This document shows positions 4,398-47,893 of a stretch of DNA of 64,000 nucleotides, one piece after another. Numbering within the stretch: the first letter of the stretch is position 1; the number at the start of each line of letters is the position of its first letter. Under the pieces are notes generated by a model that saw nothing but the letters and a program-made list of their open reading frames with translations, ran no database searches and was not told the origin of the DNA. This DNA comes from an uncultured Candidatus Micrarchaeota archaeon (GTDB lineage Archaea > Micrarchaeota > Micrarchaeia > Anstonellales > Bilamarchaeaceae), in assembly GCA_963800555.1 (NCBI GenBank), contig CAWDBH010000006.1, forward strand, positions 5,851-69,850. The letters run 5' to 3'. The position numbers were made by a program, and so were the translations under genes.

Positions 4398-5873
4398 TCA
4401 TGCCGCGGGGGCAGGCTTCTTCTTCCTGAACTTGAAGTACCAGACCGCGATCACGATCAGCACCGCTCCGACGAGGATCGGGAGCAGGCTCACGGGGTTC
4501 TGGACCTCAGGGTACACGTTCATCTCCTGCGTGAACGTCTTGTTCTTCCATTCCCCGGACGGGTCGCGGTACCCGACATTTATCTCGACCGGATAGGTCC
4601 CCGCGGAAGCGTTGACCGTTGTCGAGAACTGCACCGTGGAGAAATCGCCGCTCTGCAGGACGCCTATGTCCTGCGTGGGGGATACATCCAGGGTCTGCAG
4701 GGCGGGCGAGCTGACCGAGACGTCCACGTTGTCGATGCTGTACGAGCCTAGGTTGGAGACCTCAACTGATATCGTCTGGTCCTGACCCGTCGTCACGGGC
4801 AGCGGCTTGGCATCCAGGTTCACGCTGACGTCCGCGTCCGAAGTCACGGTTATCGGCACGTCCATCGCGGATTCCTTCTGCACGTCGTTCTCCACCCAGG
4901 ATATCGGTGAGGAGATCGTGTTGACGCCCGGTGCGAGCGCGGTGTTCACTACGACCGACACGGTCGAGGATCTGCCCGGCGATATGTCTCCGAACTTCAG
5001 CTCGTTCTGGTCCTTCAGGCTTATGCTGGAGGGGAACGAGAGCCTGAAATCCTGCAATGTGTCAGGGCCGTCGTTCTGTATCTCGATGGTCAGGTTGCTG
5101 TCCTTCTTGGTGATGACCTCGCTCATCTGGGTGATCACGAGGTCGAGCTTCTCGCTCCGTATCGTCACCCTCATGGACGACGCTCCGGTCTGCAGGTTGC
5201 CGAGCTCGTCGTTGTACTGCAGCAGAAGCGGCACGTCCGTGGGCCCGTCCGGCGCGTTGCGCGAATCGAGCATCACGCTGAACGGCATGGACTGGTTATC
5301 GTCTATCTCAGGTATGAATATCTGATCCACGCCGTAGAACTGCACCTCGGAGCCGTTAATCGGGATGGTGATCTTCAGGTTCGTCGCCTTGCCTCCGTGG
5401 TTGGATATCATCATGGTGGCGTTGTCGATCCCGCTCAGGGTGTTGTTCGATATAGAGAGCGAGATCTTCGGGCTGTCCACCACTGTGACTGGGATAGAGG
5501 CCGTGTTGACCGTCTGGTGGGGCTCGCCGTTTGACACCTGGCCGACGAATCCTGTGAAGAATACGTTGATCAGGTAGACGCCCGGGGCCGCATCCGGCTT
5601 TATCGTGAACGGTATGGTCACGACCGTGGAGCCGCCGTCGCTGATGTCAGCCATGTTCGGCGCGCTCGTAACTATGATCTCCGGCGGATTGTTTATGCTC
5701 ATGGTGATGGCCGAGGCCTGCTCTGCTCCGGTTGGGTTCGTGACCGTCACCGTGGCCACTCCAGTGGCTCCAGGCTGGTAGATGTTGCTGGATATCGTGA
5801 ACCCGTTCACGGACAATCCGGCGAAGCACACTCCCGCCACAATCAACAATATCATCAATTCCTTCAGTTTCAT
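4398..5873 (-). CDS. COG1361 S-layer-domain / Ig-like membrane-anchored protein
   Basis: Signal peptide, repeated Ig-like beta units (N.G...A....G.I.PG.S), C-terminal TM plus basic tail; AGGTG upstream of ATG 5873. Confidence 0.8.
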   Translation of the reverse strand: MKLKELMILLIVAGVCFAGLSVNGFTISSNIYQPGATGVATVTVTNPTGAEQASAITMSINNPPEIIVTSAPNMADISDGGSTVVTIPFTIKPDAAPGVYLINVFFTGFVGQVSNGEPHQTVNTASIPVTVVDSPKISLSISNNTLSGIDNATMMISNHGGKATNLKITIPINGSEVQFYGVDQIFIPEIDDNQSMPFSVMLDSRNAPDGPTDVPLLLQYNDELGNLQTGASSMRVTIRSEKLDLVITQMSEVITKKDSNLTIEIQNDGPDTLQDFRLSFPSSISLKDQNELKFGDISPGRSSTVSVVVNTALAPGVNTISSPISWVENDVQKESAMDVPITVTSDADVSVNLDAKPLPVTTGQDQTISVEVSNLGSYSIDNVDVSVSSPALQTLDVSPTQDIGVLQSGDFSTVQFSTTVNASAGTYPVEINVGYRDPSGEWKNKTFTQEMNVYPEVQNPVSLLPILVGAVLIVIAVWYFKFRKKKPAPAA

Positions 5874-39611: not shown

Positions 39612-40166
39612 TCACAATATGAAAGTGAGCGCGGCCCATCTTGTATCCACCGTTACGATATCCATTATCGCCCCGCTGATCGCGAGCACGACCTGCTCAC
39701 TGACCTCCAGAGCGATATACCTGCGTCTGATATCTCCCTCCAGGGCAATCAGCCTTTCCATCGCATCAGTTCTGTCGTAGCTGAAATGGTGGAGGGCCAG
39801 GGCCGCTTCCCAGACTACTTTATCGTCTCTCTCCCTGCGGATCAATCTCTCGAGGCGCGGGACGGTGTCGCCCGGCCTTCGGAAATCCTGAGTCGGGATC
39901 GAATTGAGCACCTTGAGGAGATGGTACCTCACTTCAGCATCAGGCTCTCTTTCAGCAGCCACCAGCGCGGGTTTGAACGCCATCGGGGACCCGAGTTTCT
40001 CCAGGGTCTTCGCCCCCTCCAGCCGCTCTTTCCTATCCTGCAGGGTTATCTGGAGGAGGGCCTGCTGCAACCCGCCGGCTTCTTTCTGCGCGGCGAATTC
40101 CCGCTGTTTCGGTTTGGATCTAAATGGGATTATGTCTGCCTCTCTCCCTCCGCCCATCAGCTCCAT
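39612..40166 (-). CDS. HEAT-repeat-like protein, paralog 2
   Basis: QALLQIT.QDRKERLEGA, AFKPAL.AAEREPD.EVR..LLKVL. Confidence 0.75.
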   Translation of the reverse strand: MELMGGGREADIIPFRSKPKQREFAAQKEAGGLQQALLQITLQDRKERLEGAKTLEKLGSPMAFKPALVAAEREPDAEVRYHLLKVLNSIPTQDFRRPGDTVPRLERLIRRERDDKVVWEAALALHHFSYDRTDAMERLIALEGDIRRRYIALEVSEQVVLAISGAIMDIVTVDTRWAALTFIL

Positions 40167-40268
40167 ATCATGGGATATCCTAGCTACAATATAAAAAACA
40201 TGAGTTTTGTTCTATGTATCTATATGTAAGCTAATGAAATCCACCTGGTCCGAATCGAAGGAGCTAGT

Positions 40269-40820
40269 TCATTTGCACAATTCGACCATCACGTCCAGGA
40301 TCGCAACCCGAACAATATGGTCGTTCCCGAATCTGCGCTTCGCCTTGTCATTCAATCTCAAAACATTCTCCGGGGCAGTGGGGTTGTCATTGCTCAGACG
40401 GAAGATCGCCCGGGCAGCTTCCCTGACCACGTTCGCATCCGTTTCCTTAAGGGTAAGCTCCTCAATACGCTGTATCGTATTCGCTGGCATGGTGAACTGC
40501 AACGGGGCCGAGCCCAACGCCTTTAGGAAACTGCGTTTTACCTCCTTATCCCGCTCGCTCTCAGCCAGGGTAAGCAGCGGATCGAACGCTCTCTCGGCAA
40601 GCTTCGGGTCGATAGGCTCCTTCGACATAAGCCTCATGATCGTTTCCGCGCCCTTGATCCTCCGTTCCGGAGACTGCCCGCATATCTGCATGAGCGCTTC
40701 CTCCAATTCAGCGTTTCCCTCGAACCTGGCGAACTCCTGTCTCCCTCCAACTAATCCAGGAGGTGCATTTGTCTTGATGCCACTAGATTCCAATCCGGTC
40801 CTCTTCGCTGATCTGGCCAT
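40269..40820 (-). CDS. HEAT-repeat-like protein, paralog 3
   Basis: EALMQI....E.RIKGA, AFDPLL...ESERDKEVK..FLKAL; likely start MARSAK. Confidence 0.75.
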   Translation of the reverse strand: MARSAKRTGLESSGIKTNAPPGLVGGRQEFARFEGNAELEEALMQICGQSPERRIKGAETIMRLMSKEPIDPKLAERAFDPLLTLAESERDKEVKRSFLKALGSAPLQFTMPANTIQRIEELTLKETDANVVREAARAIFRLSNDNPTAPENVLRLNDKAKRRFGNDHIVRVAILDVMVELCK

Positions 40821-40842
40821 ATCATCAAGCCTTTCCGCTCTC

Positions 40843-41436
40843 TTATATCTCGTCCGATTCGAGTAGGTGGGTGATCGCAACCGCAATCCCTTTCGAGATC
40901 GCATGCTCTTTCCCGTGCGCTTCCTCCGCCCGGTCCCTTATTCTGATCATATACGCTAATCCGTCGCTTCTATCATGCGGGCCATGCAGATAAAGCGCTA
41001 TAGCAGCTTGCCTGGCTATAAGCATATCTGTTTCAGTCGAATCGGTTCCCGCAACTTCCGTTAAGATGAGATTTTCCAGACGTTCGACCATATTCAGCGG
41101 CTTTTCCACGTCCCGCGCCCTCGAGGTCGCGCATAGCGCTTTGAGCAGTTGGAGCTTCACTTCCTTGTCCTGCTCTTTCTCAACCGCTTCGAGAATGGGT
41201 GTGAACGACTTGCCTGACCTCAGTTTCTTAAGGCTCACCGCCCCGTCCAGCCTTTCTTTCCTATCATCCTGTGTTATCCGGAAGAGAGCATCCTGTATGT
41301 CGGCCTTTCCCTTCTCGGTGACGAGGAAAAGATTGCGATCCCGTTGCGCGTGCGCTATCTTTTGGGTATCTGTTTCGGGCAAGGCCTGCACGGGTATTGG
41401 CCCCGAGTGCTTCCCACCTCTGCCAGTGAACGTCAT
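40843..41436 (-). CDS. HEAT-repeat-like protein, paralog 4
   Basis: DALFRITQDDRKERLDGA, SFTPILEAVEKEQDKEVK..LLKAL. Confidence 0.75.
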   Translation of the reverse strand: MTFTGRGGKHSGPIPVQALPETDTQKIAHAQRDRNLFLVTEKGKADIQDALFRITQDDRKERLDGAVSLKKLRSGKSFTPILEAVEKEQDKEVKLQLLKALCATSRARDVEKPLNMVERLENLILTEVAGTDSTETDMLIARQAAIALYLHGPHDRSDGLAYMIRIRDRAEEAHGKEHAISKGIAVAITHLLESDEI

Positions 41437-43011: not shown

Positions 43012-43099
43012 TCCCGTATATATAAAGGCTTGTTACGCTCGCCGAAGACGGGTTCTGGCTCGCGCTGGAAAAGCGGAAAAATAAAGGAGTGTTATCCCA

Positions 43100-43420
43100 G
43101 TGCCTTCTGATTTGAGAAGGGCATCCGGGAATCTCCTGTTCTCATGAGAATAATAGGCAAGGAGAACGGATAAAATTATTGGAGGGCGGGAGGTAGCCGT
43201 TCTCGCTTGCCGTCTAGTGTGACCACAGGTACCTAAAACGGAGATAAGCCCGGGACCCTGGTCGGAGTCAACGGGCATAATCATCCGTTTCTTTCTGTGG
43301 GAGGATAACAAGCCGTGGTTGCCCACGATTGCCGGACTAATGTCCGGCAAGTTGAGAACGGATCAAAATAATGTGAGAGAGGCGGGAGTGACCCGTCCTC
43401 AGCCTTGCCATCAGTGTAAA
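43100..43420 (-). ncRNA. Candidate tandem structured RNA element (two related hairpin units) upstream of the Lon-like gene
   Basis: Hairpins at 43156-43211 and 43346-43409 share stems and loop sequence; G-U pairs and a GCAA tetraloop favour the minus strand. Confidence 0.5.
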
Positions 43421-43471
43421 AGAAACCCGGTTCCATTCGAACCTCCGAGTTCCTTTGGTTTTCTTTCAATC

Positions 43472-45781: not shown

Positions 45782-46468
45782 GTGCAGCAGTTCCTCGAAT
45801 CCCCGCAATCCGAGCGCGTCAGCATAGCTGTGGACAACCGGGAGGATCCGGAATTCGACAGGATGCTGCGCGGTTTCGGTGCGCATATCGAGCGCCGCAT
45901 GCTCGATGTCGGAGATTTCATCTGCTCGGCCCGCCTTGTCGTTGAGAGGAAGACGCGCAATGACTTCGAGAGCTCGATCGTGGACGGGAGACTGTTCTCA
46001 CAGTTGCCTAACATGATCGCGAACTACGGGCGGGCGGTCGTGATTGTCGAGGGCGTGACTGATGAAGGGAGGCTATCGCGCGCGGCGGTTTTGGGTGCGT
46101 ATGCGAGCATCATCGCTGATTACGGCGTATCGCTCATGTTCACGCGTGACATGGAAGGCACGGCGGAGTTGGTGTTCCACCTGGCAAGGCACGAACAGAT
46201 TGCGAACAAGCAGCCGATGAGGATATACGCGAAGAAGCGCACGTTCAATCCATCGCAGTCGTCCCGCGCCATAGTCGAGATGCTCCCTATGATCGGGCCC
46301 AAGCTCGCGAAATCGCTATTGGTGCACTTCGGCAGCATCGAGGCTCTGGCACATGCGTCCGAGCGCGATATCGCCGAAGCCGCGGGGGTCGGGAAGAAGC
46401 GCGCGAAATCGATAAAGCAGATCCTATCCTATCCATACAAGGAAGAAGACGACCAGTCGATGTACTAA
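45782..46468 (+). CDS. xpf: Short XPF/ERCC4 nuclease with HhH2
   Basis: VDNRE, GDF....VVERKT..DF..S..DGRL, LPMIGPKLA HhH. Confidence 0.9.
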   Translation: MQQFLESPQSERVSIAVDNREDPEFDRMLRGFGAHIERRMLDVGDFICSARLVVERKTRNDFESSIVDGRLFSQLPNMIANYGRAVVIVEGVTDEGRLSRAAVLGAYASIIADYGVSLMFTRDMEGTAELVFHLARHEQIANKQPMRIYAKKRTFNPSQSSRAIVEMLPMIGPKLAKSLLVHFGSIEALAHASERDIAEAAGVGKKRAKSIKQILSYPYKEEDDQSMY

Positions 46469-47821: not shown

Positions 47822-47893
47822 GGCCATGATGGCGTAATGGTAGCGTGAGAGGCTGTGGCCCTCTAGGCCCGTGTTCGATTCACGGTCATGGCC
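47822..47893 (+). tRNA. tRNA-His(GUG) with encoded G-1
   Basis: GCCATGA/TCATGGC acceptor, AGAGG-CTGTGGC-CCTCT anticodon arm, CCGTG-TTCGATT-CACGG T arm, C discriminator, followed by a T tract. Confidence 0.95.

Follow-up and report, generated by a model that had tools for sequence, protein, structure and literature searches.

What are the two look-alike hairpins that lie between a winged helix-turn-helix (wHTH) gene and an AAA+ ATPase gene of an uncultured Candidatus Micrarchaeota archaeon (assembly GCA_963800555.1)? They stand in a gap at positions 43012-43471 of the window, by which we mean the whole 64,000-nucleotide (nt) stretch of contig CAWDBH010000006.1 that was analyzed (positions 5,851 to 69,850 of the contig). 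A first-pass annotation had described the gap as a tandem element of the minus strand with mutually exclusive folds, either a riboswitch or thermometer or a pair of small RNAs, forming one system with both flanking genes. The minus-strand strings that it quoted are present, including two G-U pairs and the CGUGG-GCAA-CCACG hairpin. It gave the gap between the two flanking open reading frames (ORFs) correctly as 460 bp, but the two units start 197 nt apart and not 190. We found that both hairpins belong to a structured RNA of the minus strand, present here in two tandem copies; it is well supported that this RNA represents an undescribed family of the Micrarchaeota (DPANN archaea). We have very little doubt that the structured RNA is genuine and had not been catalogued before. 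Unless stated otherwise, all features below lie on the minus strand, with coordinates given in the direction of reading.

The folding z-score of the region is -5.96 on the minus strand and -3.33 on the plus strand. Ten compact units, hand-picked from 41 nhmmer matches, served as the seed of covariance model R1, and RNAalifold predicted 31 pairs for them, 12 with compensatory changes. R1 was searched against 41 sources, namely, the window and 40 of 61 loci (repeats of the same genome region were left out), and gave 69 matches at E values of up to 0.01, each of them on the same strand as the flanking genes. Among the 65 distinct copies, 94.3% of the alignment cells are paired, and changes on both sides occur at 30 of the 31 pairs (255 cells). 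None of 500 covariation shuffles reached the observed values, and when the 3' partners were slid by 1 to 3 columns as a control, pairing fell to 32-48%. All three helices contribute: P1 (helix 1) is 96.6% paired with double changes at 8 of 9 pairs, and double changes are found at all 13 pairs of P2 (helix 2) and all 9 pairs of P5 (helix 3). Two P1 positions are G-U in 47 and 48 of the 65 copies, respectively. These conserved G-U pairs fix the strand, so that the RNA must be read from the minus strand of the window and no DNA-level explanation fits. The minus-strand placement and the tandem, paralogous nature of the copies given in the first-pass annotation are therefore confirmed, and the covariation in relatives that it suggested looking for is strong. 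A coding or recoding function in the genus was rejected, since the unit cores range from 71 to 160 nt by the insertion of whole hairpins, which marks them as noncoding.

Unit 1 (43417-43237, about 180 nt) is of the full type with two inserted hairpins. It was delimited with R1, aligned with the 64 other distinct copies, and scores 80.4 bits (E = 7.6e-15, with the whole own genome searched). It begins with ACACU (43417-43413), read in the sequence. The closing helix P1 is present in the minimum free energy (MFE) fold and supported by covariation; it pairs GAUGGCAAG (43412-43404), which contains the GGCAAG read at 43409-43404, with CUUGUUAUC (43312-43304) and includes the two conserved G-U pairs. 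P2, a covarying helix of 12 bp with two G-U pairs (43400-43389 with 43365-43354), encloses the 23-nt loop L2 (43388-43366), which carries CUCCCGCCUCUCUCA. Two further hairpins of the MFE fold follow, P3 (UUGCCGGAC-AUUA-GUCCGGCAA; 43350-43329) and P4 (CGUGG-GCAA-CCACG; 43327-43314), and the four-way junction of P1, P2, P3, and P4 is already present in the MFE fold of this unit. The earlier assignment of these two hairpins to an alternative fold has to be given up: they are an optional insertion within P1, and a two-hairpin insertion with other stem sequences is also found in loci L005, L008, L016, L017, and L019. The tail motif UUAUCCUCCCA (43308-43298) starts within the last nucleotides of the P1 3' strand and continues single stranded; its TCCTCCCA is present in 43 of the 65 distinct copies. 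Behind it stands P5 (43276-43248), a hairpin supported by the helix 3 covariation, with the loop CGACCA at 43264-43259, and then a weak U run read at 43239-43236. With this further hairpin, unit 1 is larger than had been described.

Unit 2 (43220-43156) is of a shorter, divergent type, which is also the last unit of the array in L005, L006, L009, L016, and L019. The R1 match covers 43211-43156 (21.7 bits, E = 0.088 in the own genome). Its parts, all read in the sequence, are ACACU (43220-43216), the GGCAAG (43211-43206) of a GGCAAG/CUUGCC closing helix, a P2 of 8 bp (43204-43197 with 43169-43162), and a 27-nt L2 (43196-43170) with CCUCCCGCC; it has neither the CCUCCCA tail nor the GACCA hairpin. 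From sequence and fold, unit 2 is followed by a 3' hairpin (43129-43096) and a T-rich, terminator-like stretch (43088-43066), and an equivalent CUCCUUUUU(U) stands after the last units of four other loci (L003, L009, L029, and L032). On the same basis, a hairpin with a short U run (43452-43420) lies between the wHTH stop codon and unit 1, and similar but nonhomologous hairpins precede many units in relatives.

Reading of 20 loci gave a consensus unit that consists of ACACU, P1 GAUGGCAAG, P2 with L2, one or two optional inserted hairpins, the P1 3' strand CUUGUUAUC, CUCCCA, a linker, and P5 with a (C/U)GACCA loop, often with CUCUUUUUUU. L2 is 23 to 27 nt long, and its CCUCCCGCCUCUCUCA core hardly varies; CTCCCGCCTC is found within L2 in 56 of the 65 distinct copies. 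The loops are thus conserved, unpaired, and similar to an anti-Shine-Dalgarno (anti-SD) sequence, as the first-pass annotation had noticed. An oligo-T tract lies 3' of 32 of the 65 distinct units, about half, compared with 22 of 65 in a control stretch of 39 nt upstream of the units, a value that is partly due to the inclusion of the preceding unit's tract. Two loci have an extra hairpin of about 35 nt inside L2, directly after CCUCCCGCCUC (L016:1745-1867 and L019:323-442); a GGCGAA in the insert might form pairs with a portion of the conserved loop. Two others have mini-units (L004:1736-1827 and L012:1624-1715) in which P2 and L2 give way to a short hairpin whose loop reads C(U/C)GACCA. The mini-units keep P1, the CCUCCCA tail, P5, and the U tract, which indicates that the modules are separable.

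The genomes searched for the distribution of this RNA are draws from their groups, and absence means that it was not found among those searched. In the own genome, R1 matches occur only in the gap at 43012-43471, and BLAST likewise finds a single place. Within the genus, the RNA is present in 36 of 40 genomes with one to four tandem copies, at one place per genome in all positives except G013, where the copies are on two contigs. When the gap was searched by BLAST in 41 genomes, 21 had a match: the own genome and 20 of the 24 others of the same genus. The 16 genomes that represent other genera of the order had none. R1-type RNAs were found in 34 of 151 genomes drawn from the order, all belonging to one family, f1 (33 of 73 when the own genome is not counted), and in none of the 77 genomes from the 11 other families. 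The relatives with names are Candidatus Micrarchaeota and Candidatus Bilamarchaeum metagenome-assembled genomes. Scattering in the manner of a miniature inverted-repeat transposable element (MITE) or a repetitive extragenic palindrome (REP) was looked for and is absent: matches in the own genome are confined to this gap, and 35 of the 36 positive genus genomes have a single place, so that a dispersed repeat was rejected.

No known family accounts for the element. Rfam 15 at gathering thresholds matched only a tRNA in the whole window (47823-47893, plus strand), and for the gap at E values of up to 10, it gave three noise matches of 8 to 16 bits. Scans of the loci of 14 relatives and of three other loci of the own genome gave nothing relevant, in agreement with the first-pass description of the element as new. 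Signal recognition particle (SRP) RNA, RNase P RNA, and 5S, 16S, and 23S rRNA were rejected as identities, as all are located elsewhere in the own genome. A full-text search, judged from listings that show the beginnings of abstracts, brought up no literature on such an RNA.

The gene directly upstream encodes the wHTH protein (159 amino acids from ATG 43951; gene 43951-43472, ORF 43969-43472), as recognized from the ORF, its homologs, and the predicted structure. The conserved core begins at ATG 43909 (MDDNDDK...), and proteins of 145 to 160 amino acids are conserved over their whole length in 20 of 20 loci of the genus. The predicted structure has a helical hairpin and a C-terminal winged helix (mean confidence score pLDDT, 75.7). 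Its best structural matches are of the MarR/ArsR type, at E values of 1.3e-3 or weaker, and the weak matches include archaeal centromere-binding winged-helix proteins. A divergent ribosomal protein eS25 was considered and rejected: PF03297 was unmatched in the genome, in a search whose control was poor, and a profile search of solved structures gave HTH regulators only, at E values of 0.013 or weaker. The gene is single copy in 134 of 151 genomes of the order. By profile, it is single copy in 156 of 161 genomes of the class, a tally that includes one unpublished genome, and it is found in 130 of 134 high-quality genomes and in 93 of the 94 genera of the class.

Upstream of the gene, a TATA-like box, TTTATTAAA, was read at 43977-43969 in a layout that recurs in relatives; it probably serves the whole wHTH-RNA transcript. 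Two TCATGA palindromes conserved in relatives lie at the expected transcription start (43964-43959 and 43953-43948). The arrangement ATCATGA(N3-5)ATCATGA is kept upstream of the gene in relatives, and the palindromes look like a candidate operator, possibly autoregulatory. The 5' leader has a hairpin, GUUGCGCGAUUUCGUCGCAAC (GUUGCG...CGCAAC; 43945-43925), and an SD-like GGUGAU (43919-43914) ahead of ATG 43909, both conserved in genus relatives. The order of TATA box, TCATGA boxes, hairpin, GGUGA(U/A), and ATG recurs in most of 24 relatives. AUCA(U/C)G words resembling the TCATGA boxes also precede the RNA in other families. The first RNA unit is no more than 70 nt from the wHTH stop codon in 19 of 20 loci and no more than 5 nt from it in 8 of 20, and L010 and L011 have three units at a spacing of about 117 nt with no T tract in between. 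Given this closeness and this spacing, cotranscription is the simplest reading, and most likely the RNA, which directly follows the wHTH gene, is cotranscribed with it.

Related RNAs are found after the same gene well beyond the genus. RNAs with the motifs GCAAGGCGACCA and (UCA)CCUCCCA follow the wHTH gene in 21 of the 31 families examined outside the genus. For the order, we took 60 genomes outside the genus, chosen for all 12 families, and inspected the sense strand over 400 nt downstream of the gene. GCAAGGCGACC, with up to 2 mismatches, was present in 44 of the 60, CCTCCCAC in 45, and CACCTCC in 37, with 0 in the antisense control in each case. A wider sample of 40 genomes, chosen to represent 19 families from outside the order, has GCAAGGCGACC after the gene in 22 cases (2 in the control) and TCACCTCC in 14 (0 in the control). 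The motif pair is present in f13, f14, f15, f19, f26, f29, f30, and f34, and differing C-rich forms were found in f16, f17, f18, f20, f22, f28, and f33. Family f14 carries AUCACCUCCA, which equals the last 10 nt (10/10) of the 16S rRNA of the genome that holds the window (...GGAUAGAUCACCUCCA); the window units share only ACCUCC and CCUCC with the 16S 3' end. In single-sequence folds from other families, 35 of 51 instances of CCUCCCAC are fully unpaired and enclosed by a helix of 8 bp or more. When 22 large hairpins from 7 families were aligned with MAFFT, RNAalifold gave no structure, and 12 sequences of family f6 gave 9 pairs, 4 of them compensated. With such weak alignment results outside f1, the claim of structure there rests on single-sequence folds and inspection. 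In several families, the UGA within the conserved UGAUGCU is the wHTH stop codon. The same motif nucleotides are coding in some lineages and noncoding in others.

The 12-mer GCAAGGCGACCA is also found apart from the wHTH gene. It is present in 239 of 301 genomes of the phylum and in 98 of 129 genera (a tally including one unpublished genome), usually at one to three sites per genome, and matches to a reversed-pattern control are rare. The own genome has three exact copies, all noncoding and all outside the window. One lies in the ftsZ leader (contig C21:8440-8510, plus strand; L158), just ahead of a GGGUGA SD sequence, and another is on contig C10. The ftsZ leader has the order hairpin, GCAAGGCGACCA, AAAAGGGUGAAACU, and AUG, and in genome G035 (L155), the 12-mer stands directly before the start codon of a membrane protein ORF. 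The third copy belongs to a solo small RNA (contig C16:105440-105560, minus strand; L156:1968-2066) that is divergent from an RNA 3'-phosphate cyclase (RtcA-like) gene. This RNA is laid out as a hairpin, GGCAAGGCGACCAGUUAUCCUCCCAUG, a second hairpin, and a U-rich end, with the sequence ...GGCCAGCGG-UUUUAC-CCGCUGGCAAGGCGACCAGUUAUCCUCCCAUG-hairpin-U-rich. It joins the 12-mer to a GUUAUCCUCCCA word that the window units also contain and has the tail motif UUAUCCUCCCA as well. Families f6, f8, f12, and f15 have counterparts of it, as do three genera of f1. An Rfam scan of the solo RNA was without a match, and 5S rRNA was rejected as its identity, as the 5S rRNA is located elsewhere in the genome. 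Genus members have the GCAAGGCGACCA motif in split form, with the GGCAAGG portion base paired inside P1.

For the function, we propose that the element is a small RNA, cotranscribed with the wHTH regulator, that pairs with purine-rich, SD-like sites. The proposal is drawn from the anatomy of the locus, and we give it a probability of roughly 0.4. Transcription would start at the wHTH promoter, whose two TCATGA palindromes may act as an operator for the wHTH protein itself, run through the gene into the RNA array, and end at the U-rich tract before the ATPase promoter. The RNA would act in trans, either as a 3' untranslated region (UTR) or once processed. Its helices would keep the C-rich segments unpaired, and these could pair with SD-like purine-rich stretches of mRNAs as the 16S 3' end does, competing with ribosome docking. 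Extra tandem units, as seen in the genus, would raise the dose. The C-rich motif is indeed unpaired in the loop and tail, a feature of base-pairing small RNAs with C-rich seeds, and many relatives have unpaired stretches identical in sequence to the anti-SD end of 16S rRNA.

Several results weigh against this proposal. The alignment that shows the covariation was fitted to model R1, and its sequences are related and not independent. Among 20 sequencing runs listed, no RNA run covering the region was found, and the transcript ends and any processing are inferred from the sequence. A search for a long antisense target of L2, with 16-mers in 40 genus genomes and a genome-wide duplex scan, gave no conserved site and returned mainly the RNA genes themselves, and GGGAGG-type words were not enriched before start codons in the own genome, for which proper gene calls were lacking. 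The genus motifs (ACCUCCC and AUCCUCCCA) have drifted from the exact 16S end, so that the match is 5 to 6 nt, and they do not match the GGUGAU-type SD sequence before the wHTH gene. The invariant stretch of about 16 nt exceeds what a pairing seed needs, and a protein-binding site fits it equally well. No complementary partner was found for GCAAGGCGACCA, which base pairing leaves unexplained. In f13 and f14 (L191 to L201), the wHTH ORF reads through both motifs and ends in ...DAGKAT..LIVSPPQ*, and the motifs vary there at third codon positions (UCA CCU/CCC/CCA CCA/CCG), which indicates that the stretch is also coding in these families and argues against a purely RNA reading. A role as a guide for rRNA was rejected: duplex energies of L2, the tail, and the 14-mer with 16S and 23S rRNA were no better than those of shuffled queries, and no contiguous Watson-Crick or G-U complement was found in rRNA.

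A broader version of the proposal would take the universal wHTH protein and an RNA copying the 16S 3' end, joined on one transcript, as a single class-wide regulatory module for which no parallel has been described, a global switch on translation initiation or small-subunit maturation. The satellite GCAAGGCGACCA sites (the ftsZ leader and the solo RNA by rtcA) would then be its regulon, and the tandem expansion in the genus would be a dosage variant. The mimicry would concern the anti-SD tail and perhaps also the CAAGG..CC linker before helix 45. We regard this version as unlikely.

On the other side of the RNA is the ATPase gene (43011-41536; probable start, ATG 42996), identified by domain search and synteny. 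Its ORF of 491 amino acids encodes a LonB-related AAA+ module with a Zn-ribbon insert and without the protease domain (TIGR00764, E = 9e-103, below the cutoff). A TATA box, TTTATATATA, was read at 43026-43017, 21 to 30 nt before ATG 42996, which implies a leaderless ATPase mRNA starting after the RNA array. In the window, the T-rich stretch at 43088-43066 separates unit 2 from this box. A TATA-like A/T run lies 27 to 41 nt ahead of the conserved Met in 15 of 15 ATPase-bearing loci, downstream of the RNA, so that the ATPase mRNA should start after the RNA in all of them. The ATPase gene is next to the RNA in 15 of 20 genus loci; 2 more loci end at a contig edge, and other, hydrogenase-related genes follow the RNA in 3. 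In families f2, f5, f6, f7, f8, and f10, the RNA is followed by a conserved protein of about 295 amino acids (L159:2477-3364 in G065) with the motif M..IISSRELVEH.VLSRKKNEL..., which has no Pfam family and was not found in the own genome with the G065-type query. The ATPase is a neighbor and not part of the RNA element. Of the system of wHTH protein, RNA, and Zn-ribbon ATPase drawn up in the first-pass annotation, the link to the wHTH gene stands, but the ATPase does not belong to it. In L005, L006, L009, L012, and L016, about 200 nt of conserved sequence downstream of the last unit and ahead of the ATPase gene look like a small hydrophobic ORF of the opposite strand and have no equivalent in the window. 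Further genes in the surroundings are two for HEAT-repeat proteins downstream of the ATPase gene (39612-40904, minus strand), one for a short XPF/ERCC4 and helix-hairpin-helix nuclease (45782-46468, plus strand), and the tRNA gene mentioned above.

These neighbors bear on the original idea that the 5' leader of the ATPase gene contains a tandem riboswitch or RNA thermometer, which switches between two exclusive folds. This idea could draw on the position of the units upstream of the ATPase gene and on its strand in 15 of 20 loci and on an alternative helix in the window, in which the 3' arm pairs with a downstream CGGAU over 7 bp. However, the TATA-like boxes place the RNA outside the ATPase leader, about half of the units end in oligo-T, and the gene that follows differs in 3 of the 20 loci and again in other families. 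The alternative helix exists as described, but it is not conserved: among the 54 units whose linker has 8 nt or more, its maximum length averages 3.54 bp, compared with 3.57 bp after shuffling, and it reaches 7 bp in only 3 of the 54, the window, a relative with 87% identity, and one other. Mutually exclusive folds are thus unsupported, and we consider a switch of this kind scarcely credible. A DNA-level element, either an operator- or centromere-like array bound by the wHTH protein or a MITE or REP, is very improbable as well. The adjacent gene does encode a winged-helix protein with weak matches to centromere-binding proteins, and the units are direct repeats with inverted-repeat arms. Nonetheless, the complementarity of the arms is kept while their sequence changes, the conserved G-U pairs would be mismatches in DNA and make sense on one strand only, and the RNA is nearly always limited to a single locus in each genome, the own genome having no copy outside it. 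A structured 3' UTR acting purely in cis, which would set the 3' end, stability, or termination of the wHTH mRNA and have no role in trans, agrees with units that begin at or a few nucleotides from the stop codon, with the stop codon within UGAUGCU in several families, and with the oligo-T tracts after 32 of 65 units. A stability element, however, needs no invariant unpaired loop of 16 nt, and tandem arrays of two to four units and a solo copy far from the gene are hard to explain in this way; we think such a purely local role improbable.

The remaining explanation is that the RNA binds the wHTH protein encoded upstream, as a stable ribonucleoprotein, a decoy, or an autoregulatory site that mimics the natural ligand, for example, the 16S 3' minor domain. 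The linkage of gene and RNA persists across the class while the other neighbors change. Long single-stranded stretches are invariant (16 nt in L2 and 12 to 14 nt for GCAAGGCGACCA) and have no complementary targets. Moreover, the 12-mer has sites of its own in most genomes of the phylum, including the ftsZ leader and the solo RNA, as would be expected of a regulon. The repeated units and motifs might then be several binding sites, as in a CsrB-like sponge. Against this, the protein resembles an ordinary DNA-binding regulator of the MarR/ArsR type, the TCATGA palindromes in its own promoter suggest that it binds DNA, and in the genus, the GCAAGGCGACCA motif is split, with its GGCAAGG part paired in P1. 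Binding to the wHTH protein, with or without a sponge-like multiplicity of sites, is in our judgment possible, though somewhat doubtful. The anti-SD-like small RNA is the reading that we prefer.

To our knowledge, DPANN archaea have few described RNAs other than rRNA, tRNA, SRP RNA, and RNase P RNA, and how they regulate their genes has been little studied. The strong covariation, the absence from Rfam, and the tie to a protein present in nearly the whole class make this RNA a testable entry into the regulation of reduced symbionts. Should the mimicry of the 16S end have a function, it would represent a kind of translational control that, as far as we know, has not been described in archaea. 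A covariance model of the family would allow its annotation as RNA, also where, as in some families, a reading frame runs through the motifs.

How does the element compare with known systems? In its size of 70 to 180 nt, in having an archaeal host, and in a UGAUGG word close to the 5' end, it resembles the archaeal C/D-box and H/ACA small RNAs. In C/D-box RNAs, the C box RUGAUGA and the D box CUGA meet as a terminal kink-turn, and guides complementary to rRNA or tRNA are present. Here, UGAUGG lies inside the covarying P1, there is no terminal CUGA, and rRNA duplexes are no better than shuffles, and this class was rejected. H/ACA RNAs have a hairpin with an internal pseudouridylation pocket and a 3' ACA box; they were rejected as well, as P1 and P2 are separated by an internal loop of just 3 by 2 nt and no conserved ACA follows the helix. 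With the sponges CsrB and RsmZ, the element shares repeated motifs displayed on hairpins, a variable number of repeats, and possibly titration, but its motifs are C rich and not GGA, CsrA-like proteins play no part, and the candidate partner would be the wHTH protein as a putative RNA binder. Autogenous control of ribosomal proteins by rRNA mimicry, together with small RNAs derived from 3' UTRs, offers another parallel in an rRNA-like mRNA segment in the 3' part, with up to 10 of 10 nt matching the 16S 3' end in relatives. In contrast to those systems, the gene is not a recognizable ribosomal protein gene, the mimic comes after the gene and not in the leader, and the match in the genus is 5 to 6 nt. 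RsaE/RoxS of Firmicutes and LhrC1-5 of Listeria are small RNAs that expose CCC or CCUCC motifs in loops and can pair with SD sequences, and LhrC exists as several tandem sibling copies. The element described here shows neither sequence nor structural homology to them in Rfam scans, has an archaeal host, is fused to the 3' end of a regulator gene, and has a much longer invariant stretch and extra GGCAAGG and GACCA modules. Like them, it is a small structured RNA with C-rich loops, and like LhrC, it occurs in tandem copies.

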